In this document: piece after piece, positions 2,838-30,837 of the stretch
Position numbering within the stretch: the first letter of the stretch is position 1
Layout of the letters: the number at the start of each line of letters is the position of its first letter
Source: Solirubrobacteraceae bacterium
GTDB taxonomy: Bacteria > Actinomycetota > Thermoleophilia > Solirubrobacterales > Solirubrobacteraceae
Assembly: GCA_034665465.1 (NCBI GenBank)
Contig: JAXDFS010000040.1
Span: 1-30,837 of the forward strand
Reading direction: 5' to 3'
DNA: 30,837 nt
Position numbers and translations under genes: made by a program
The notes under the pieces: generated by a model
Told to the model about the DNA's origin: nothing
The model's database searches: none
What the model saw: the letters and a program-made list of their open reading frames with translations, nothing else

Positions 2838-4151
2838 GTGCCGATCTCGACATTCATGGGGCTGCACACGTCGCTGCGGGGGCTGCTGGCAGAGCAGCGC
2901 GCGCTCGACGTCACCTCGCACAACGTCGCCAACGCCAACACGCAGGGCTACTCGCGCCAGGAGGCGCAGCTGCAGGCGACCGACGCCCTCGCGCTGCCGA
3001 CCGGCGGCCAGCTCGGCACCGGCATCGACGTCACCGCCTACAAGCGCATCCGCGACAGCTTCCTGGACCTGCAGTACCGCGCCCAGTCGATGCAGGTCGG
3101 CGCCGGCACGACCCGCGCCGACGGCCTCTCGCAGGCCGAGCTGCGCCTCGCCGAGCCCGGCGACAACGGCATCGCGGCGCGCCTGAGCAGCTTCTGGAGC
3201 TCGTGGGCGGACCTCGCCAACGCGCCCGACAGCGGCGCCGCCAAGCAGGCGCTGATCGAGAACGCCCGCACGCTGGCGAGCTCGGTCAACGCGCTCGACT
3301 CCGGCCTGGCCGGCGTCTCGACGCAGTCCGCCGACGAGCTCACGGCGATCACGGCGACGGGCGGCGAGCTGCAGCAGATCGGCAAGGAGCTCGCCGGCCT
3401 CAACGGCGCGATCCGCGACACCGAGCGCGTCGGCGGTCAGCCCAACGACCTGCTCGACCGCCGCGACGTCCTGCTCGACCGGCTCTCGCAACTCGCGCAG
3501 GTCTCCGTCGCCGACAACGGCGCAGGCTCGATCCGCGTCACGGTCGGGGGCGCCGGCGCCCCGCTCGTCGACGGCTCGGCGCTGACCTGGCCGCCGCCGG
3601 CGATGACGAGCCCGGGCGGCAAGCTCGGCGCGCTCATGGACCTCAGCTCCCCGACCGGCACGATCGCCTCCTACCGCGGCGACCTGGCGAACTTCGCGCA
3701 GGCGCTGACGACGCAGGTCAACGCGGTCTACAACCCTGCCGCGGGCGTCGACTTCCTCGCCTACAACGCGGGGACCGCGACGCTTACGGTGAATCCCGCC
3801 GTGACCGCCGCCAACGTCCGCGCCGGTGGCGGCGCGGCCGGTGACAACAGCGCCGCGCTCGCGCTCTCCGAGCTGCGCGGCCGATCCGGCGGCCCCGACG
3901 ACCTGTACTCCCGGCTCGTCACGCGGATCGGCACCGAGGTCGCCGACGCGCGGCGCGGTGAGCAGAACGCCACTGCGCTGTCGGAGTCGATCGAGGATCG
4001 CCGCCAGAGCACCGCCGGCGTCTCGCTCGACGAGGAGATGACGAACCTCATCCGCTTCCAGCGCGGCTACCAGGCCGCGGCGCGCGCGATGACGACGACC
4101 GACACGCTGCTGGACACGCTCATCAACCGCACCGGCCGCGTGGGGCTGTAG
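2838..4151 (+). CDS. flgK: Hook-associated protein 1
   Basis: LDVTSHNVANANTQGYSRQ, KRIRDSFLDLQYR, PNDLLDRRD, STAGVSLDEEMTNLIRFQRGYQAAARAM. Confidence 0.95.
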   Translation: MPISTFMGLHTSLRGLLAEQRALDVTSHNVANANTQGYSRQEAQLQATDALALPTGGQLGTGIDVTAYKRIRDSFLDLQYRAQSMQVGAGTTRADGLSQAELRLAEPGDNGIAARLSSFWSSWADLANAPDSGAAKQALIENARTLASSVNALDSGLAGVSTQSADELTAITATGGELQQIGKELAGLNGAIRDTERVGGQPNDLLDRRDVLLDRLSQLAQVSVADNGAGSIRVTVGGAGAPLVDGSALTWPPPAMTSPGGKLGALMDLSSPTGTIASYRGDLANFAQALTTQVNAVYNPAAGVDFLAYNAGTATLTVNPAVTAANVRAGGGAAGDNSAALALSELRGRSGGPDDLYSRLVTRIGTEVADARRGEQNATALSESIEDRRQSTAGVSLDEEMTNLIRFQRGYQAAARAMTTTDTLLDTLINRTGRVGL

Positions 4152-4154
4152 ACG

Positions 4155-5063
4155 ATGAGCACGCCCCGCATCACGAGCTCGATGATCTCTCGCAGCACGC
4201 TGGCCGACCTCAACGACGTCGCCACCCGGATCACCGACACGCAGCGCAAGATGTCAACGGGCAAGCAGCTCACGCGCCCGTCCGACGACCCCTTCGCGGT
4301 CGGCCGCGCCCTCGGGCTGCACACCGAGGTCGACGGCCTCGTGCAGTACCAGCGCAACTCCGCCGACGGCGAGTCCTGGACCGCCGCCAGCGACACCGCG
4401 CTGGGGACGCTCACCGACATCGCCCAGCGCGGCCGCGAGCTGCTGGTGCGCGGGGCCAACGGCACCGCGACGGCAGGCGAGCGCGCGGTCGTCGCCGACG
4501 AGATCGACCAGCTCATCGAGGCCGCCAAGCAGACCGCCAACAGCCAGCAGGGCGGGCGCTCGCTCTTCGCCGGGACGGCGACGGACGTCAAGCCCTACGC
4601 CGCCGGCTCGGACGTCTACGCCGGCGACGGCGGCGACGTCGTGCGCTCGATCGGCCCCGGCGTCGCGGTCGTCGTCAACGTCCGCGCGTCCGACATCCTT
4701 GGCAGCGGCGGCGGCGACGGCAAGATGCTCAGCGTCCTGCGCGACGTCTCCGCTCATCTGCGCGGCGGGACCTCCGCCGACCAGGCGGCGCTCGGCGGCG
4801 GCGACATCGCCGCGGTCGACCGCTCGATCGACGACCTGCTCGGCGCGCGCGCCCACATCGGCGCCGTCGCCAACCGGCTGTCGGCCGCCGACGACCGGCT
4901 CGCCGAGCTCGAGGGGGGCGCCCGCGAGCTGCTCTCGAAGACCGAGGACGCCGACATGGCGTCGACCCTCATCGACTACTCGATGCAGCAGTCCGTCTAC
5001 CAATCCGCGCTGAAGGCGGGCGCGGGCATCGTGCAATCTTCCCTGCTGGACTTCCTGCGCTGA
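4155..5063 (+). CDS. flgL: Hook-associated protein 3
   Basis: QRKMSTGKQLTRPSDDP, EDADMA...QQSVYQSALKAGA.IVQSSLLDFLR. Confidence 0.95.
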   Translation: MSTPRITSSMISRSTLADLNDVATRITDTQRKMSTGKQLTRPSDDPFAVGRALGLHTEVDGLVQYQRNSADGESWTAASDTALGTLTDIAQRGRELLVRGANGTATAGERAVVADEIDQLIEAAKQTANSQQGGRSLFAGTATDVKPYAAGSDVYAGDGGDVVRSIGPGVAVVVNVRASDILGSGGGDGKMLSVLRDVSAHLRGGTSADQAALGGGDIAAVDRSIDDLLGARAHIGAVANRLSAADDRLAELEGGARELLSKTEDADMASTLIDYSMQQSVYQSALKAGAGIVQSSLLDFLR

Positions 5064-5083: not shown

Positions 5084-5539
5084 ATGTCACTGACCGTAGA
5101 GAGCACACGCTTCGGCACCCTCGAGATCGAGCCGGAGGCCGTGCTGTCGTTCCCGCGCGGCCTGATCGGCCTGGGCGGCTCGCGCTACGCGCTGCTGAGC
5201 ACCGAGCCCGACAGCCCGTTCTCCTGGCTGCACTCCGTCGAAGATCCCGGCCTCGCGCTGCCGGTCACGCGGCCGTGGGGATTCTTCCCCGGCTACGAGG
5301 TCCTGCTGTCCGATGCCGAGGCCGCCTCGCTGGGCATCAGCGGTGAGGCCCCGACCGACGTCTGGGTCACCGTCCGCGCGACCGAGCGCGTCGAGGACTT
5401 CACGGTGAACCTGCGCGCGCCGATCATCGTCATCGCCGGCGCCACCGGCCCCGAGGCATTTCAGGTGATCAACGACGCCCCCGGCGCCGACGTGCGGGTC
5501 CCCCTGTTCGCCGCCGGCGCGGACGTCGCAGCCGCCTGA
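5084..5539 (+). CDS. fliW: Flagellar assembly factor FliW (CsrA antagonist)
   Basis: STRFGTLEI, FPRGLIGL, PFSWLHSVEDPGLALPVTRP, TVNLRAPIIV. GGAG RBS; lies directly before csrA. Confidence 0.92.
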   Translation: MSLTVESTRFGTLEIEPEAVLSFPRGLIGLGGSRYALLSTEPDSPFSWLHSVEDPGLALPVTRPWGFFPGYEVLLSDAEAASLGISGEAPTDVWVTVRATERVEDFTVNLRAPIIVIAGATGPEAFQVINDAPGADVRVPLFAAGADVAAA

Positions 5540-5603
5540 CCACCCCGGCGACCGGGCGGTTGCCGACCGATTGGCCGCCGCCGGGGGGCGGACACTAGTC
5601 TTG

Positions 5604-5635
5604 TCCTCCCTCGCAGACACCGGATCCAGGGAGGA
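5604..5635 (+). promoter_or_regulatory. Anti-SD hairpin sequestering the csrA ribosome-binding site
   Basis: TCCTCCCT(5604-5611) is the exact reverse complement of AGGGAGGA(5628-5635), which contains the SD 3 nt before GTG 5639. A TANNNT hexamer (TAGTCT) lies at 5596-5601. Confidence 0.5.
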
Positions 5636-5638
5636 ACC

Positions 5639-5866
5639 GTGCTCAGCATCACGCGCCGCGTCGGCGAGCGCATCGTCATCGGCGACGACATCGTCCTACA
5701 CGTCCAGGAGGTCAGCGGCAGCACGGTGCGCATCGGCATCGAGGCGCCGAAGGCGATGCCCGTCTACCGCGAGGAGATCTGGGCCGCCGTCAAGGAGGAG
5801 AACGCCGCTGCCGCGAGCGCGGCGAAGGACCTGCCGAGCGGGCCGCTGAAGCCGCCCGCCTCCTGA
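5639..5866 (+). CDS. csrA: Carbon storage regulator CsrA
   Basis: MLSITRRVGERIVIGDDI.L.VQEVSGSTVRIGIEAPKAMPVYREEI, with a GGAGG RBS. Confidence 0.95.
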   Translation: MLSITRRVGERIVIGDDIVLHVQEVSGSTVRIGIEAPKAMPVYREEIWAAVKEENAAAASAAKDLPSGPLKPPAS

Positions 5867-5913
5867 CGGCCCGCGAAAAATCAACCGCGGCGGGCCCGAG
5901 CCTGCCCACCCGC

Positions 5914-5941
5914 TAACCCGCCGCCGGACGCGAGCCGATGC
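5914..5941 (+). promoter_or_regulatory. Weaker candidate sigma28 promoter for the PAS-GGDEF-EAL gene
   Basis: TAAC(5914-5917)-N16-GCCGATGC(5934-5941). GTG 5948 lies 6 nt downstream and has no SD. Confidence 0.45.
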
Positions 5942-5947
5942 AGTCCC

Positions 5948-8900
5948 GTGGCCTGGCGCATCGACCTCGTGACAAACGCCGTGATCGCGGTTGCCTACTT
6001 CGGCATCTTCGCGGTGATCTTCAAGGGCCTGCGCCGCTCCGGCCAGCTGCACTCCAACCGCCTGGGCCTGGCGACGGCAGCGATCTTCTTCAGCTGCGGG
6101 ATGGGACACCTGCTGCACGTCGACCACCTGGTCGCGCCGTCGTTCGGCTGGGCGCTGGCGTCCGAGACGCGCGCGGGCGTCGACTGGCACCTGGCGCTGT
6201 GGGACGGGATCACGGCCGGCGTCGCGGTGACCTACTTCTGCCTGCGCAAGAGCTACGGCCAGCTGCTGCTCGGCCCGGCGATCTTCGACGACCTCGCCCG
6301 CGGCTCCGGCGAGCGCGCGCTGCGCAACGCCGAGCAGCTCTTTCGCACGGCCTTCGAGAACGCGCCGATCGGGATGGCGCTCGTGGGCCTCGACGGGCGC
6401 TTCAAGCGCGTCAATCGCTCGCTCTGCGAGATCGTCGGCCTCGACGCGGCCGCCCTGCTCGCACACACCTTCCAGGAGATCACCCACCCCGACGACCTCG
6501 ATGCCGACCTCGAGCTGCTGCGCGAGCTGATCGCCGGCGAGTGCCCGTCCTACTCGATCGAGAAGCGCTACGTCCACTCCACCGGCCGTTTCGTCTGGAT
6601 CGAGCTGCACGTCTCGCTCGTGCGCGACGAGGACGGCGAGCCCGTGCACCTCGTCTCCCAGATCCGCGACATCAGCTCCCAGAAGGCCGCGGAGGAGCAC
6701 CTCGGGCGCTACCTCGCGGTCGTCGAGTTCGCCGAGGACGCGGTCGTGGCGACCGATCTCGAGGGCCGGATCATGACCTGGAACCGCGGCGCCGAGCGCC
6801 TCTACGGCTACGCCTCCGATGCTGCGATGCAGCAGTCGATCGCGCTGCTGCAGCCGGCCGACCGCGTCGGCGAGGTCGACGTCATCAACGGCGAGATCGC
6901 CGCCGGGCGCACGGTCGAGCGCCTGGAGACCAGGCGGCGGCGCCAGGACGGCAGCCTCGTCGACGTGCAGATCACCGTGTCGCCGGTGCGCGACCGCGCC
7001 GGCCGCGTCGTCGGAGCCTCGACGATCGCCCGCGACGTCACGCAGGCGGTCCTCGCGGAGCGCTCTCGCACGCTGCTCGAGCGCGACCTCGCCAAGGCGC
7101 ACGACCGCTACGCCCACGTCCTCGCGGCGGCGACCGAGTGCGCGATCATCGGCACCGACTCCAAGGGCGTCGTCACCGTCTTCAACACCGGCGCCGAGCG
7201 GATGCTCGGCTACCGGGCCCGCGACCTCGTCGGCCACGCCACGCTCGAAGCGCTGCACGACGCCGGGGAGATCGCGGCGCGCGCCAGGGCGCTGGGCATC
7301 GGGCCGGGCTTCGAGGTGCTCGCGGCGACCGCGCGCGAGGGCGGCGCCGAGACCCGCGAGTGGACCTACCTGCGCCGGGACGGCAGCCACGTCGCCGTGA
7401 GCGTCACGGTGACCGCGCAGCGCGAGCGCGGCCTCATGACCGGCTTTCTGGCGATCGCGACCGACATCACCGACGTCAAGCGCGCCGAGCGGGCGCGGCG
7501 CGAGGCCGAGGAGCTCTTCCGCGGCGCCTTCGAGCACGCGCCGATCGGCGTGGCGCTCGTCGCCGCCGACGGCGCCGAGGCGGGAGCGATCGTCCGGGCC
7601 AACCACGCGCTTGCCGATCTCGTCGGCGGCGACCCGGCCACCCTGGCCGGCCGCGACCTCGTCGCGCTCGCCCGCCAGGAGGACCGCGCCGAGCTCGCCG
7701 CGACGCTCGCGCGGCTGCTCGACGGCGCCGAGAGTGTACACGGCGAGCAGCGGCTGATCGCCGCCGACGGGCACGACATCTGGACGCTGCTGTCGGGCTC
7801 GCTCGTGCAGGGCTCGGAGGGACGCGGGCGCCAGGCGGTCATCCAGGTGCTCGACATCACCGAGCGCAAGACGTTCGAGGGTCGCCTGCAGCACCTCGCC
7901 GACCACGACGCGCTGACCGGCCTCGTCAACCGCCGCCGCTTCGAGCACGAGCTCGACCGCGCGCTCGCGCACGCGGAGCGCTACGGCAGCCGCGGCGCGG
8001 TGCTGCTGCTGGACCTCGACGGCTTCAAGTACATCAACGACGCGCTCGGCCATTCCGTCGGCGACGAGCTGATCATGCGCATCGCGGGCGTCATCCGCGG
8101 GACGCTGCGCGAGACCGACCTCGTCGCCCGGATCGGCGGCGACGAGTTCGCGGCCATCCTGCCCGAGGCCGACGCGCAGACGGCGGCCGTGGTGGCCGAG
8201 AAGCTGCTGTCGGCGATCCGCCGCCAGGGCAGCGTCGAGACGAGCGCCAAGCGCCAGGCGCGGGTGACGACGTCGATCGGCGTCACGGTCTTCGACGGCG
8301 TCCGCGGGCTCACGGGCGAGGACCTGCTCGTGGAGGCCGACATCGCGATGTACGACGCCAAGGACGCCGGGCGCGACGGCGTCAAGGTCTACAGCGACGA
8401 GGAGCGCAGCCGCGAGCAGATCAACGTCCGCGCGACCTGGCTGGAGCGCCTGCGCTCGGCCGTCGCCGACGACCGCTTCCGCCTCGTCGCCCAGCCGATC
8501 GTGTCGCTCGGCGAGCCGGGCGTGCCATGGCTGGAGCTGCTGCTGCGCTACGAGGACGACGACGGCGACCTCGTCCCGCCCGGCGCGTTCCTGCCGATCG
8601 CCGAGCGCTTCGACCTCATCTGCGACATCGACCGCTGGGTGCTGCGCGAGGCCGTGCGGCTGCTGCACGACGAGCACGCCGCCGGCCGCGACGTCTCACT
8701 CGCGGTGAACCTCTCGGGCCGGACGATGAGCGACCCCGGACTCGGCGAGTACCTCGAGTCGCTGCTGGCCGCGCAGCCGATCCAGCCCGGGCGGCTCGTC
8801 ATCGAGGTCACCGAGACTGCCGCGATCGTGAACATCGACCGCGCGCGGCGCCTGGCCGAGCGCCTGCACGCGCTCGGCTGCCGCTTCGCGCTCGACGACT

Positions 8901-9205
8901 TCGGGGCGGGCTTCGCCTCCTTCTACTACCTCAAGCACCTCGCCTTCGACTATCTGAAGATCGACGGCGAGTTCGTCCGCCAGCTCGTGCACGACCCCAC
9001 CGACCAGCTCGTCATCCAGGCGGTGGTGAACATCGCGCGCGGCCTCGGCACGCGCACGGTGGCCGAGTTCGTGGGCGACGAGCCGACGGTCGAGCTGCTG
9101 CGCAGCCTCGGCGTCGACTACGGGCAGGGCTATCACCTCGGGATGCCGACGCCGATCGCGCAGGTGCTGGAGGCGGCGGCGCGCGAAGGCGTGTCCGGGC
9201 TCTAG
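5948..9205 (+). CDS. Membrane-anchored diguanylate cyclase/phosphodiesterase: ETR1-like N-terminal TM sensor, 4 PAS/PAC, GGDEF, EAL
   Basis: Four PAS repeats (FENAPIGMA..THPDD; WNRGAERLYGY; FNTGAERMLGY; FEHAPIGVA). GGDEF domain with DALTGLVNRR, DLDGFKYINDALGHSVGD, RETD I-site and RIGGDEF. EAL domain with ELLLR, VNLS, IEVTET, LDDFGAG, KIDGEFV, AEFVG and GQGYHLG. Confidence 0.93.
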   Translation: MAWRIDLVTNAVIAVAYFGIFAVIFKGLRRSGQLHSNRLGLATAAIFFSCGMGHLLHVDHLVAPSFGWALASETRAGVDWHLALWDGITAGVAVTYFCLRKSYGQLLLGPAIFDDLARGSGERALRNAEQLFRTAFENAPIGMALVGLDGRFKRVNRSLCEIVGLDAAALLAHTFQEITHPDDLDADLELLRELIAGECPSYSIEKRYVHSTGRFVWIELHVSLVRDEDGEPVHLVSQIRDISSQKAAEEHLGRYLAVVEFAEDAVVATDLEGRIMTWNRGAERLYGYASDAAMQQSIALLQPADRVGEVDVINGEIAAGRTVERLETRRRRQDGSLVDVQITVSPVRDRAGRVVGASTIARDVTQAVLAERSRTLLERDLAKAHDRYAHVLAAATECAIIGTDSKGVVTVFNTGAERMLGYRARDLVGHATLEALHDAGEIAARARALGIGPGFEVLAATAREGGAETREWTYLRRDGSHVAVSVTVTAQRERGLMTGFLAIATDITDVKRAERARREAEELFRGAFEHAPIGVALVAADGAEAGAIVRANHALADLVGGDPATLAGRDLVALARQEDRAELAATLARLLDGAESVHGEQRLIAADGHDIWTLLSGSLVQGSEGRGRQAVIQVLDITERKTFEGRLQHLADHDALTGLVNRRRFEHELDRALAHAERYGSRGAVLLLDLDGFKYINDALGHSVGDELIMRIAGVIRGTLRETDLVARIGGDEFAAILPEADAQTAAVVAEKLLSAIRRQGSVETSAKRQARVTTSIGVTVFDGVRGLTGEDLLVEADIAMYDAKDAGRDGVKVYSDEERSREQINVRATWLERLRSAVADDRFRLVAQPIVSLGEPGVPWLELLLRYEDDDGDLVPPGAFLPIAERFDLICDIDRWVLREAVRLLHDEHAAGRDVSLAVNLSGRTMSDPGLGEYLESLLAAQPIQPGRLVIEVTETAAIVNIDRARRLAERLHALGCRFALDDFGAGFASFYYLKHLAFDYLKIDGEFVRQLVHDPTDQLVIQAVVNIARGLGTRTVAEFVGDEPTVELLRSLGVDYGQGYHLGMPTPIAQVLEAAAREGVSGL

Positions 9206-27872: not shown

Positions 27873-28778
27873 CTAGCGCAGCAGCGACAGGACCGACTGC
27901 GGAGCCTGGTTGGCCTGCGAGAGCATGCTCGTGCCGGCCTGCTGCAGGATCTGCGACTTCGTGAACTGGACCATCTCGTCCGCCATGTCGACGTCCCTGA
28001 TCCGGCTCTCCGCCGACACCAGGTTCTCCTGGTAGCTGGCGAGGTTGGCGATGCGGTGCTCGAGGCGGTTCTGGACGGAGCCGAACGTGGCCCGCGTGTC
28101 GGAGACCTCGGCGATCGCCTTGTCGATGTCGTCGAGCTTGACGGCCGCGAAATCGGCCACCGCGGCGCTCGAGCTGGCGTCGATGCTGGTGATCTTGCTC
28201 AGGCTGGTCGCCGACGCCGTCAGATCCGACGTCGAGATGGTGATGGTCTCACCGTCGTTGGCGCCGACCTGCAGGTTGATGGTGGAGGCGCTGCCGCCCC
28301 CGCCCACGACCGCGGATGCGCTGCCGGTGCCCGTAACGACCGGGGCACCGTCGATGTCGCCCTGGAAGAGCGCGATCCCGTTGAACTTGGTGTTCGTCCG
28401 GATGTCGCTGATCTCCTTGCCGAGCTGGCCGACCTCGGAGACGATCGCCTTCTTGTCGGTGTCGCTGAGCGTGTCGTTGCCGAACTGCGTGCGCAGCTCG
28501 CGGACGCGCTGCAGCATCGAGTGGACCTCGTTGAGCGCGCCCTCTCCCGTCTGCACGAGCGAGACGCCGTCCTGCGCGTTGCGCTGAGCCTGGCTGAGGC
28601 CGGTGATCTGGCCGCGCATCTTCTCGCTGATCGCGAGGCCGGCCGCGTCGTCGGCGGCGCGGTTGATGCGGTAGCCGGAGCTCAGGCGCTCCATCGACTT
28701 CGCCATCTTCTCGGAGTTGGCGACGAGCTGACGGTGGGTGTTGAAGGCTTCGACGTTGTTGTTGATACGAAGGGACAT
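27873..28778 (-). CDS. fliC: Flagellin, 301 aa
   Basis: MSLRINNNVEA, ERLSSGYRINRAADDAAGLAISEKMR, LQVGANDG, RATFGSVQNRLEH, ESRIRDVDMA, QANQAPQSVLSLLR. Confidence 0.98.
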   Translation of the reverse strand: MSLRINNNVEAFNTHRQLVANSEKMAKSMERLSSGYRINRAADDAAGLAISEKMRGQITGLSQAQRNAQDGVSLVQTGEGALNEVHSMLQRVRELRTQFGNDTLSDTDKKAIVSEVGQLGKEISDIRTNTKFNGIALFQGDIDGAPVVTGTGSASAVVGGGGSASTINLQVGANDGETITISTSDLTASATSLSKITSIDASSSAAVADFAAVKLDDIDKAIAEVSDTRATFGSVQNRLEHRIANLASYQENLVSAESRIRDVDMADEMVQFTKSQILQQAGTSMLSQANQAPQSVLSLLR

Positions 28779-28885: not shown

Positions 28886-29266
28886 TCAGCCGTCGGAGAC
28901 GGTCGCGGCGGCTGTCTGCTCGAGCTCCGCGAAGCGCGCGCGGACCTCGGCGATGACGAGCTGGCGGGCGACGGCGAGGGCGAGCGCCCAGACCGCGAGG
29001 TAGCCGGCGATGCCGCCGGCCAGGCCGCGCAGCATCCAGTCGAAGGCCGGGAGGTTCGCGCGCGACGCCAGCAGCGAGCACAGCACGGCGCCGGCGACGC
29101 CGCCCCAGCCCTTGGCCCGCCGCACCGCGCCGGCGTGGCGGGGATGTCGCGCGACGCAGACGCCCGCAACGACGGTCACCGCGGCCTCGTCCTTGCCCTT
29201 GCCCTTCTTCTCCTTCTTCTCCATCGGCGCCTTGGGCTCCTTGGGCTCCTTGGGCTCCTTGGCCAT
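28886..29266 (-). CDS. Hypothetical small membrane protein with a Lys-rich N-terminus
   Basis: ATG 29266, with a GGGAGG RBS and a TGATG overlap with the PilZ gene. KEPKEPKEPK..EKKEKKGKGK, then two hydrophobic segments. Confidence 0.7.
   Translation of the reverse strand: MAKEPKEPKEPKAPMEKKEKKGKGKDEAAVTVVAGVCVARHPRHAGAVRRAKGWGGVAGAVLCSLLASRANLPAFDWMLRGLAGGIAGYLAVWALALAVARQLVIAEVRARFAELEQTAAATVSDG
29230..29262. repeat. 9-bp tandem repeat (CCTTGGGCT)x3 plus a partial unit, encoding KEP repeats
   Basis: Read directly from the sequence. Confidence 0.85.
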
Positions 29267-29859
29267 CACAGCCTCCCGTGACGGCGGTCGAGGCGCTGTC
29301 GGTCGAAGACGAAGCGCACGATCCGCTCGCGGTCGGACTCGTTGATCTGCTCGAAGGTCACGGCCCGAAACTGCTCGTCGAACTCGCGCACGACGCGGCC
29401 GGTGATCTGCAGCGGCGGGTCGTAGGGCGCGAGCTGCAGCGAGAGCTGCACCTCGTCGCCGGCGCTCATGCCCGCCAGCCGCGAGATGACCGCGCCCGAG
29501 GCGCTGACGTTCACGACGGCGGCGGGAATCGGCTCACCGGTGCCCGCGGGTGTGACGACGACCTCCAGGAAGGCGTCCACGCGCGCGAACTGCCGGCGCT
29601 GGACGAGCTCGCTGCGGCCGGTCAGGCCGAGCTCGAGCACCTCGCCGCCGGGGGCGCTGACGACCTGCGCGTCGACGTGCAGCAGGCCGCGCTTGGTCGC
29701 GATGTCGATGCAGACCTCGCTGCCGACGGTGTCGGCGAGCGGCCGCAGGGGCCGGACGAGCAGATTCGCCGTCGCGTGCTCGTCGTCCATGTCGACGACG
29801 GCCGGGAAGCTCCCTACCTCCGGAACGATGACCGTCGCGTGTCGGCGCGCGCCGGTCAT
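29266..29859 (-). CDS. PilZ-domain c-di-GMP effector (YcgR/MotI-like flagellar brake candidate), 197 aa
   Basis: ATG 29859 (ATGA overlap). QRRQFARV (RxxxR) and VNVSASGA ([D/N]xSxxG), preceded by an N-terminal beta domain. Confidence 0.85.
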   Translation of the reverse strand: MTGARRHATVIVPEVGSFPAVVDMDDEHATANLLVRPLRPLADTVGSEVCIDIATKRGLLHVDAQVVSAPGGEVLELGLTGRSELVQRRQFARVDAFLEVVVTPAGTGEPIPAAVVNVSASGAVISRLAGMSAGDEVQLSLQLAPYDPPLQITGRVVREFDEQFRAVTFEQINESDRERIVRFVFDRQRLDRRHGRL

Positions 29860-30837
29860 GGCAGGAGGTGCGCGCAGAGCGCGGCGCGGTCGACGGGCGC
29901 GAGGCCGTCGGCGTCGCTGCAATAGGAGATGGCCAGGCCGCGCGCGATCGCGGCGTCGATGACCGGGCCGGCATGGTCGACCTCGTCGAGGTGCGTGAGC
30001 ACGATCGCCGCCGGCTTGACGGCGGCGAGGCCGTCGAGCAGGCGCCGGGCCGCGCCGGCACTGAGCGTCGCCGGAACCGCGACGTGGACCTCGCACGGCC
30101 CGGCGCGCCGAAGCCTGCGGGCGAGCGCCCGCGCGTCGGCGCCGGACGCCGGCGAGATCGCGGCCGTGTCGATCACCGTCAGGATCTGGTCGCCGGCGGC
30201 GGGCTCCGGGACCTGTTCCGCAGCGAGGTCGATCAGGCGCACGCCGAGGTCGCTCGCCGCGGCGTAGGCGGCGGCCAGTCGCGTCGCGCAGAGCGTCTTG
30301 CCGGCGCCGCCGGCGCCGACGAACGCGACCGCGCGGGGGCCCGCTGGGACCGGGGCGGCGACCGGGATGCGCGCGGCGAGCGCGTCGCGGACGAGGTGCT
30401 TGAGCGCGCGGCCGGGCGCGAACGGCACCGCGTGGGAGACCGTGGCGGCGATGATGTCGGCGGCCAGCGCCGGTGCGATCCCGGCCGCGACGAGCGTGCG
30501 CTCGTGGGCGGCGGCGGCGCCGGTGCGTGAGGCGGGCTCGGGCTCGGGCTCGGGCTCGGGCGTCGCGGCGGGCGCGACGGGCGCGACGCGCTCGATCTCC
30601 CGCCCGGCGGGCTCGACCGGCTCCGGCACCGCGGCGACCGGCTCGTCCGCCGGCTCCCAGCGCGGCGGCGGCTCGGGCTCGAGCTCCTGCTCGGCGCTCG
30701 CGCGTCCCTGCGCCTCGGCCTGCGCGGCCTGCAGCTGCTCGACGAACGGCGAGGCGACGCGCATGATCTCGCGGATGGCGGGCGGCTGCGGCTCGGGCTC
30801 GGGCGGCTCGGAGAAGGACTGCGCGGGAGGGCCGTCG
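29856..30837 (-). CDS. flhF: FlhF-like SRP-family GTPase with degenerate G motifs; 5' end lies beyond the window
   Basis: The frame is open to the right edge. Pro/Glu-rich linker, then VAFVGAGGAGKT.CATRLAAAY, VIDTAA, VHVAVPAT, IVLTHLDE, ISYC. Confidence 0.7.
   Translation of the reverse strand, partial: DGPPAQSFSEPPEPEPQPPAIREIMRVASPFVEQLQAAQAEAQGRASAEQELEPEPPPRWEPADEPVAAVPEPVEPAGREIERVAPVAPAATPEPEPEPEPASRTGAAAAHERTLVAAGIAPALAADIIAATVSHAVPFAPGRALKHLVRDALAARIPVAAPVPAGPRAVAFVGAGGAGKTLCATRLAAAYAAASDLGVRLIDLAAEQVPEPAAGDQILTVIDTAAISPASGADARALARRLRRAGPCEVHVAVPATLSAGAARRLLDGLAAVKPAAIVLTHLDEVDHAGPVIDAAIARGLAISYCSDADGLAPVDRAALCAHLLP
30534..30561. repeat. 6-bp tandem repeat (GGGCTC)x4 plus a partial unit, encoding an EP linker in FlhF
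   Basis: Read directly from the sequence. Confidence 0.8.

Follow-up and report, generated by a model that had tools for sequence, protein, structure and literature searches.

We analyzed a 30,837-nucleotide contig (JAXDFS010000040.1, here called the window) of the Solirubrobacteraceae assembly GCA_034665465.1, focusing on a gene at 5948..9205 (+) whose product joins a membrane domain resembling that in ETR1, an ethylene receptor from plants, to enzymatic domains of cyclic di-GMP (c-di-GMP) turnover. The gene directly follows flgK-flgL-fliW-csrA, in keeping with the flagellar locus named in an initial annotation made from the DNA alone. Translation and Pfam assign to the 1085-aa product three N-terminal transmembrane (TM) helices, four PAS domains, a GGDEF domain and an EAL domain, the same 4xPAS-GGDEF-EAL architecture that had been read from the open reading frame (ORF). 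The window has a G+C content of 73.7%, and the third-codon-position G+C content (GC3) of the ORF is 0.97. The ETR1_N-like sensor domain (residues 1-110, 5948..6277 (+)) was delimited by Pfam, AlphaFold2 (AF2), Foldseek, hhalign and residue conservation. Next come the four PAS domains (approximately residues 128-640, 6329..7867 (+)), found as four stretches both by the Pfam PAS families and by TIGR00229, the GGDEF domain (residues 651-810, 7898..8377 (+); PF00990, 157.5 bits, profile positions 1-160 of 161) and the EAL domain (residues 833-1067, 8444..9148 (+); PF00563, 221.6 bits, profile positions 2-236 of 236). We accept the GTG at 5948 as the start codon because it is the first in its frame after an in-frame TAA at 5915-5917, and because the N-terminus is conserved in homologs: V-A-W-R and the GTG are invariant across four orthologous loci, and Trp3 is conserved in the wider family. 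Orthologs of the whole protein, with 84-88% identity, come from four metagenome-assembled genomes (MAGs) of Actinomycetes. The source genome is itself a MAG (3.4 Mb, 442 contigs, 80% complete) with close relatives labeled Solirubrobacteraceae or uncultured Actinomycetes, and the sequence occurs in soil metagenomes, indicating a soil habitat.

Both catalytic domains had been described as intact-looking, and their motifs bear this out. The GGDEF domain contains GGDEF, an RxxD I-site (RETD) five residues upstream, D-x-D..N-D..G-H and K-x-x-G-R. The EAL domain reads ELLLR (the ELL variant of EAL), NLS, EVTE, DDFGAGFAS, KIDG, EFVG and GQGY; the ELL, N, ExxE, DD, K, E and Q residues are all there, and with them every metal and substrate residue, loop 6 included. 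Since the motifs are intact and the Pfam profiles are covered over their full length, both domains look catalytically competent, and the enzyme is probably bifunctional. Other c-di-GMP enzymes carry gas or redox sensors on GGDEF-EAL, among them the MHYT-domain enzymes MucR and NbdA of Pseudomonas, with a proposed membrane copper, and the haem-PAS proteins DosC and DosP; their folds and families are unrelated to the sensor domain here. An MHYT sensor was rejected: neither the whole protein nor residues 1-125 gave a Pfam MHYT match at E values up to 10, and there are three helices only. A DosP-type haem-PAS sensor was also rejected, the DosP match being limited to the GGDEF-EAL part in Pfam and NCBIfam searches. 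In the NCBIfam scan, no model matched the N-terminus of the protein.

The sensor domain begins with TNAVIAVAYFGI, which supplies N10, Y17 and I20 (codons at 5975-5977, 5996-5998 and 6005-6007 (+)). The string AAIFFSCGMGH supplies C50 and H54 (6095-6097 and 6107-6109), followed by H57 (6116-6118), H60 (6125-6127) and H81 (6188-6190), and DGITAGVAV runs from D86 (6203-6205) to V94. Spacings are 7 from N to Y, 33 from Y to C and 4 from C to H; these strings, residues and distances, on which a likeness to the ETR1 ethylene-binding domain had been proposed, are exact in the translation. Profile and structural comparisons both recovered that likeness. Pfam ETR1_N (PF25487), which has a curated gathering cut-off of 27 bits, scores 30.5 bits on the whole protein, 36.2 bits (E 7.7e-9) on residues 1-125 and 35.9 bits in a genome scan. 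When a profile of 61 relatives of the domain was compared by hhalign with one of 32 canonical bacterial ethylene-binding domains, the two matched with 91% probability (E 1.1e-6) over helices 1-2, pairing N10/Y17/I20/C50/H54 with ETR1 D25/Y32/I35/C65/H69 (the canonical D/N, Y, I, C and H columns). In ungapped offset scans a single register stood out for helix 1, scoring 20.4 against 1.7 for the runner-up, and likewise for helix 2, at 15.9 against -0.8. The AF2 model has helices at 2-30, 38-62 and 71-108 and a mean predicted local distance difference test score of 82.7. Searched with Foldseek against 550,129 Swiss-Prot models, it returned plant ethylene receptors as all of its top 21 matches, with query-normalized TM-scores of 0.70-0.74 in the leading 19 and 0.55 in the other two, over alignments of about 105 residues (4-108) at 18-23% identity. 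In the ESM Atlas, the clusters nearest to residues 1-110 carry ETR1_N. Because these four independent lines agree (Pfam score, hhalign, AF2 with Foldseek, and ESM Atlas clusters), the resemblance of residues 1-110 to the ETR1 ethylene-binding domain exceeds chance, and we interpret it as homology. At the sequence level this homology covers helices 1-2, and structure comparison of the predicted model extends it to the whole three-helix fold. Separately, phage (Uroviricota) records predominate in several of the short ETR1_N hypothetical-protein clusters (107-145 aa) near residues 1-110 in the ESM Atlas; phages may encode ETR1-like three-helix proteins.

A profile search with the sensor domain of 1.84 billion cluster representatives (50% identity clusters) found 364 relatives at E <= 0.001, of which 227 reached E <= 1e-10. 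Residue conservation was computed on the best 150 representatives (<=50% mutual identity) plus the query. N10 is kept in 83% (Ser in 7%, Asp in 2%), Y17 in 93% and I20 in 94%; N37, L39 and T43 reach 96-97%, A42 and I46 91-93%, and F47 97%. The presumptive metal ligands C50 and H54, whose conservation in homologs had been set beforehand as a test of the ETR1 likeness, stand at 95% and 97%. Lower values are found for H57 (88%), H60 (72%) and H81 (52%), and for W80 (65%), D86 (83%) and R100 (92%). Among 63 longer members of the group, 36 match Pfam ETR1_N at E <= 0.001. Canonical ETR1_N domains occur in the same phylum: in two other Actinomycetota genomes they score 99-103 bits against ETR1_N over profile positions 2-96. 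The profile built from the relatives of our sensor misses both of these genomes at E 1e-5, which indicates that the two groups are separable families of one superfamily. By these sequence comparisons, the sensor domain is not a canonical ethylene-binding domain and belongs to a separate, mostly actinobacterial clade. Its distribution is patchy, with the clade profile finding members in 12 of 401 sampled Actinomycetota genomes, while the Pfam model finds ETR1_N in 6/101 genomes of the same family. A literature search, incomplete in its coverage, found no description of the clade or of ethylene receptors from Frankia, Actinoplanes or Solirubrobacter.

How far the clade departs from ETR1 can be judged at seven residues that we take to be required for ethylene binding: D25, Y32, I35, P36, I62, C65 and H69. 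A role in binding is supported for I35, P36, I62, C65 and H69 (PMC6586836) and for D25 (PMC10266040). In our protein these positions read N, Y, I, F, F, C and H, so that 4/7 are retained, and the clade as a whole follows N-Y-I-x-F-C-H. Canonical bacterial domains, collected as homologs of one of those in the two Actinomycetota genomes, have Ile62 in 52/52 cases and Ser at the Pro36 position in 50/52. The sensor could nonetheless be a true ethylene receptor, a special case of the interpretation developed below, in which Cu(I) at Cys50/His54 would bind ethylene of soil or roots and set c-di-GMP levels and swimming. Such a function would fit the ETR1_N homology, the retained copper ligands, the soil habitat of the organism and the occurrence of clade members in the plant-associated genera Parafrankia and Actinoplanes, and there is precedent in bacterial ethylene receptors with effects on motility or biofilm (PMC6682694, PMC11819568). 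Against it, 3/7 of the binding residues are altered, among them Ile62, which is otherwise invariant; the additional conserved histidines speak for a different metal chemistry; and the coexistence of canonical and divergent domains in the phylum as separate families suggests different specificities.

The polar residues around the copper site bear on the same question. In ETR1, Cys65 and His69 bind Cu(I), and Asp25 hydrogen-bonds His69 and bridges to Lys91 (PMC10266040, PMC11971883). The D25N form of ETR1 is a functional receptor with roughly 100-fold lower ethylene affinity, and Asn occurs naturally at this position in 3.67% of related sequences (PMC10266040, PMC11971883), in line with the earlier remark that Asn in place of Asp25 may mean lower affinity. 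As a natural variant with faster release, Asn has been put forward as a good fit for motile bacteria (PMC10266040, PMC11971883), a point in favor of an ethylene receptor. Losing the basic character of Lys91, on the other hand, cuts ETR1 ethylene binding to 1-6% (PMC10266040), and our protein is without a clear counterpart of that residue: in helix 3 we see no basic residue of the Lys91 type, the best register giving Asp86. Strict co-variation of the Asp25 and Lys91 positions among canonical bacterial domains (D/K 38, N/L 6, N/R 5, N/K 0) agrees with the published Asp25-Lys91 coupling. In the clade, Asn10 is instead accompanied by a conserved Asp86 within a W-D-x-x-T-A motif at the start of helix 3, and the N10/D86 pair is present in 107/152 sequences; positions 10 and 86 are too invariant for a covariation test to inform. 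Helix 3 is covered only by extended hhalign alignments and by the fold match. In the extended alignments Asp86 falls in the Lys91 column, and T89-A90 pairs with the canonical T-A. Cys-to-Asp spacing is 25-26 in the shortest clade members, compared with a C65-K91 distance of 26 in ETR1 and 23 in canonical bacterial domains, and the loop preceding helix 3 varies in length across the clade. From these alignments and spacings, Asp86 is, with moderate support, more likely than not the counterpart of Lys91. If so, the carboxylate has been relocated from helix 1 to helix 3, from where it could still polarize the copper histidine. On balance, the likeness to an ethylene receptor stands at the level of homology, by profile and fold, and does not extend to the complete binding site, given the four of seven residues, the lack of an evident Lys91-type residue and the separate clade with its additional histidines. 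Ethylene is a plausible ligand, to which we give less than even odds.

The histidines raise a further alternative. C50, H54 and H57 share one helix 2 face (i, i+4, i+7), H60 follows a step further along, and H57, H60 and H81 are not a feature of canonical domains. Short members of the clade carry a denser C-x-x-H-H-x-x-H-x-x-H motif. We infer a topology with an external N-terminus, an internal positively charged loop (26-38) and cytoplasmic PAS, GGDEF and EAL domains. In this arrangement C50 would sit at about mid-membrane, H54, N10 and D86 at similar depth in the outer leaflet, and H57, H60 and H81 at the outer membrane interface, where they could help to load the cofactor, make up a second metal site or do the sensing themselves. 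The domain might then sense a metal ion (copper, zinc or nickel) or a redox or oxygen state directly, with the Cys-His-His-His ladder, His81 and Asp86 as the sensing site. The one-faced arrangement, the clade-specific conservation of H57, H60 and H81, their position near the outer face and the denser motif of the short members all agree with this idea, and on account of the extra histidines we retain it as a serious rival. Two points speak against it: no metal-homeostasis genes adjoin the sensor gene or the four other clade loci examined, and what is known of the homologous family is ligand sensing that depends on a cofactor. We regard direct metal or redox sensing as a minority explanation.

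The domain is also found attached to many kinds of output. The 63 longer clade members include 32 with GGDEF, 20 with EAL, 25 with HisKA and 24 with HATPase domains, and further outputs comprise 14 REC, 3 GAF, one SpoIIE and one HD. Actinoplanes, Rugosimonospora and Parafrankia encode hybrid kinases in which the N-terminal domain is followed by PAS-HisKA-HATPase-REC, a layout similar to that of ETR1 with PAS replacing GAF. At the other extreme, 87 of the 150 listed representatives are <=260 aa. Complete short members are stand-alone proteins of approximately 190-250 aa that consist of the three-helix Cys/His domain and a HisKA_3-like helical domain, and the best match in an AFDB cluster search (44% identity) is such a protein. 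Receiver-domain genes lie directly downstream of two of them (L011:5935-6612 and L012:5905-6582). The HisKA_3-like domain of the short members has Asn at the position of the phospho-accepting His (E-[IL]-N-D-N-[IV]-V-Q-G-L), and a short member with its receiver gene may be an unusual split or pseudo-kinase signaling pair. Because the module has been shuffled among outputs and also stands alone beside receiver genes, it behaves in these architectures as a portable input domain and not as an anchor. The contrary view holds that the three helices serve only as a membrane anchor or dimerization element of remote ETR1 ancestry that has lost ligand binding, with the PAS domains doing the sensing. 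It could draw on the weak Pfam score, the lack of significant sequence similarity in helix 3 and the availability of four PAS domains as sensors. The membrane-buried residues N10, N37, C50, H54, H57 and D86 are, however, kept in 83-97% of representatives that share <=50% identity, and such conservation of buried polar residues across domain shuffling argues against a mere anchor; recombination with many outputs and occurrence alone beside receiver genes are likewise typical of input domains. We consider the anchor explanation highly improbable. In Parafrankia homologs (L023, L025-L029) the outer loop that joins helices 2 and 3 carries a long insertion rich in Gly, Thr and His, which in some of them includes repeated T-G-T-S-T-G units, and in Parafrankia sp. 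EUN1f the same gene start is found on two contigs (L023, L025), one of which is cut by the contig end.

Taken together, these observations lead us to propose, with a probability of roughly 0.7, that the sensor gene encodes a membrane-bound c-di-GMP enzyme with a divergent input module of the ETR1_N superfamily. The module probably detects a gas, a small molecule or a metal, not necessarily ethylene, whose odds are matched or exceeded by those of a different small ligand or of metal or redox sensing. A metal cofactor at Cys50/His54 is rather probable. In the mechanism that we envisage, Cys50 and His54 would bind this cofactor at mid-membrane depth, Cu(I) being the most likely metal. Asn10 of helix 1, His54 of helix 2 and Asp86 of helix 3 would form a polar network equivalent to Asp25-His69-Lys91 of ETR1, its carboxylate now on helix 3 and no longer on helix 1, and the H57/H60/H81 cluster at the outer membrane face could help to load the metal or act as a second site. 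A small ligand, hydrophobic or gaseous, or a metal or redox change, would shift helix 3, ethylene with fast, low-affinity kinetics being the leading candidate ligand, and the shift would be passed through the four PAS domains to alter the balance of c-di-GMP synthesis and breakdown. A still more specific version is speculative, and we give it rather poor odds: the Asn10/Asp86 histidine-ladder clade would consist of copper-dependent sensors of ethylene, another alkene or a small gas, in which the relocated carboxylate permits fast, reversible sensing that is wired to c-di-GMP and motility in soil Actinomycetota and to hybrid kinases in Parafrankia and Actinoplanes.

Several findings weigh against the proposed sensor. 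The Pfam ETR1_N match is weak, at 30-36 bits compared with about 100 for canonical domains of the same phylum, and its alignment covers profile positions 5-68 of 97, that is, helices 1-2 only. For helix 3, the offset scan gave three near-equal registers (-2.6 to -3.6), so that sequence cannot fix the register. Only four of the seven ethylene-binding residues of ETR1 are retained, and Ile62 has become an invariant Phe in the clade. A fold search of the PDB returned no significant match, there being no solved ETR1 membrane domain available for comparison, and the AFDB cluster search, whose best match was a 195-aa clade member, had fragments of G protein-coupled receptors among its further matches, which implies that the three-helix fold alone is not specific. 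The four PAS domains may be the true sensors. Two 98%-complete genomes of the same genus are without the domain, no copper-handling genes were found near the sensor gene, and one of four orthologous loci (L009) is without flagellar neighbors, having neither flgK-flgL-fliW nor a csrA-sized ORF upstream.

Comparison with Arabidopsis ETR1 illustrates the mixture of shared and altered features. Both proteins have three N-terminal TM helices, a polar residue, Tyr and Ile in helix 1, Cys-x3-His in register in helix 2, a Y-to-C spacing of 33 and a predicted fold that matches at TM-scores of 0.71-0.74. In our protein, by contrast, Asp25 is replaced by Asn, Pro36 by Phe, Ile62 by Phe and Lys91 probably by Asp86. 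His57, His60 and His81 are additional, and helix 2 opens with an extra N-R-L-G-x-A-T motif. Helices 2 and 3 are joined by a longer loop of variable length, the N-terminal disulfide cysteines are missing, and the output is PAS-GGDEF-EAL where ETR1 has GAF-histidine kinase. To our knowledge, ethylene perception beyond plants has been shown for two bacterial receptors only, both canonical histidine kinases. These are SynEtr1 (Slr1212) and AzoEtr1, which bind ethylene and affect phototaxis, biofilm and root colonization (PMC6682694, PMC11819568). They share with our protein a bacterial origin and an ETR1-type membrane domain, and they control surface behavior, motility or biofilm (PMC6682694, PMC11819568). 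They differ in having all seven binding residues, demonstrated ethylene binding and histidine kinase outputs, where our protein has four of seven residues and, as predicted from its domains, would act on c-di-GMP directly. Reviews note that bacterial ETR1-type domains occur with many output types (PMC7700396), and our literature search, within the same incomplete coverage, found no ETR1-type domain experimentally coupled to c-di-GMP.

The closest counterparts in overall architecture come from uncultured Actinomycetota: canonical ETR1_N-PAS-GGDEF-EAL proteins (P0161-P0163, 729-739 aa), annotated in public data as EAL or PAS proteins only. Since such proteins exist, the domain fusion in the window is not unique. 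P0161 and P0162 likewise carry Asn at the Asp25 position. Their membrane domains differ from ours in scoring approximately 99 bits against ETR1_N with full coverage, in keeping Ile62 and C-G-A-T-H and in having no histidine ladder, and all three proteins have one PAS region where ours has four. The clade profile misses their genomes at E 1e-5. A conserved clade with copper ligands and a rearranged Asp25-Lys91 network would amount to a natural experiment on the tuning of affinity and specificity. Should the domain bind a gas, it would link that gas directly to c-di-GMP beside flagellar genes, and homologs in the cultivable, plant-associated Actinoplanes and Parafrankia make the idea testable. 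Should it sense a metal or redox state, the family labeled "ethylene receptor-like" would be functionally split, a warning against annotation transfer.

The sensor gene lies in a flagellar region. Upstream on the same strand are two rod genes (507-1999), a FlgJ-like rod-binding gene (1996-2307), flgN, and then flgK and a flgL-like hook-associated gene (2838..5063; Pfam FlgK_D1, Flagellin_N and Flagellin_C). They are followed by fliW (5084..5539 (+); Pfam FliW, 84.3 bits) and, immediately ahead of the sensor gene, by csrA, a 75-aa ORF (5639..5866 (+); Pfam CsrA, 76.4 bits). A 92-aa ORF at 5571-5849 was rejected as csrA: it has no Pfam match and is a wrong-frame artifact of high G+C. Downstream of the sensor gene lie a glyoxalase-family gene and a CHAP hydrolase. 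Further along the window a flagellin gene (27873-28778 (-)) and an FlhF-like gene adjoin the gene for a 276-aa PilZ-domain protein (29266..30096 (-)), in which Pfam PilZ matches residues 166-264 at the C-terminus with 49.3 bits. As a candidate YcgR-type flagellar regulator that depends on c-di-GMP, this protein could receive the signal of the enzyme. The position of the sensor gene after fliW-csrA, together with the nearby PilZ protein, suggests flagellar motility as the output, and we think that c-di-GMP made or degraded by the enzyme probably tunes motility. In orthologous loci, flgK-flgL-fliW lies upstream in 2/4, and a 77-aa csrA-sized ORF precedes the gene in 3/4, being Pfam-confirmed as CsrA in L010 and a putative csrA by size and position in L007 and L008.

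The sensor gene may also be transcribed on its own. A scan of 5400-6100 for sigma-70 promoters and intrinsic terminators found nothing, and strict sigma-28 patterns gave a single match each; the -35 element upstream of the sensor gene is weak, leaving sigma-28 control as a lead only. GCCGAT at 5934-5939, 8 nt ahead of the GTG, is a sigma-28-like -10 element that resembles the -10 before fliC. We aligned the non-coding region upstream of the gene (5867..5947 (+)) with its counterparts in four orthologous loci (L007-L010, 5903-6000). Across the five loci AAAATCAACCG (5877-5887) is invariant, as are the blocks GAGCCT..CC.A, GCT(A/C)A and CGAT(G/A), and GAGCCTGCCCA is near-invariant (9/11 positions). 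This region of approximately 80 nt is strongly conserved in all five loci, including L009 with its different upstream genes. Together with the -10-like element, this conservation suggests that the sensor gene has its own promoter, possibly of the sigma-28 type and perhaps giving a leaderless mRNA.

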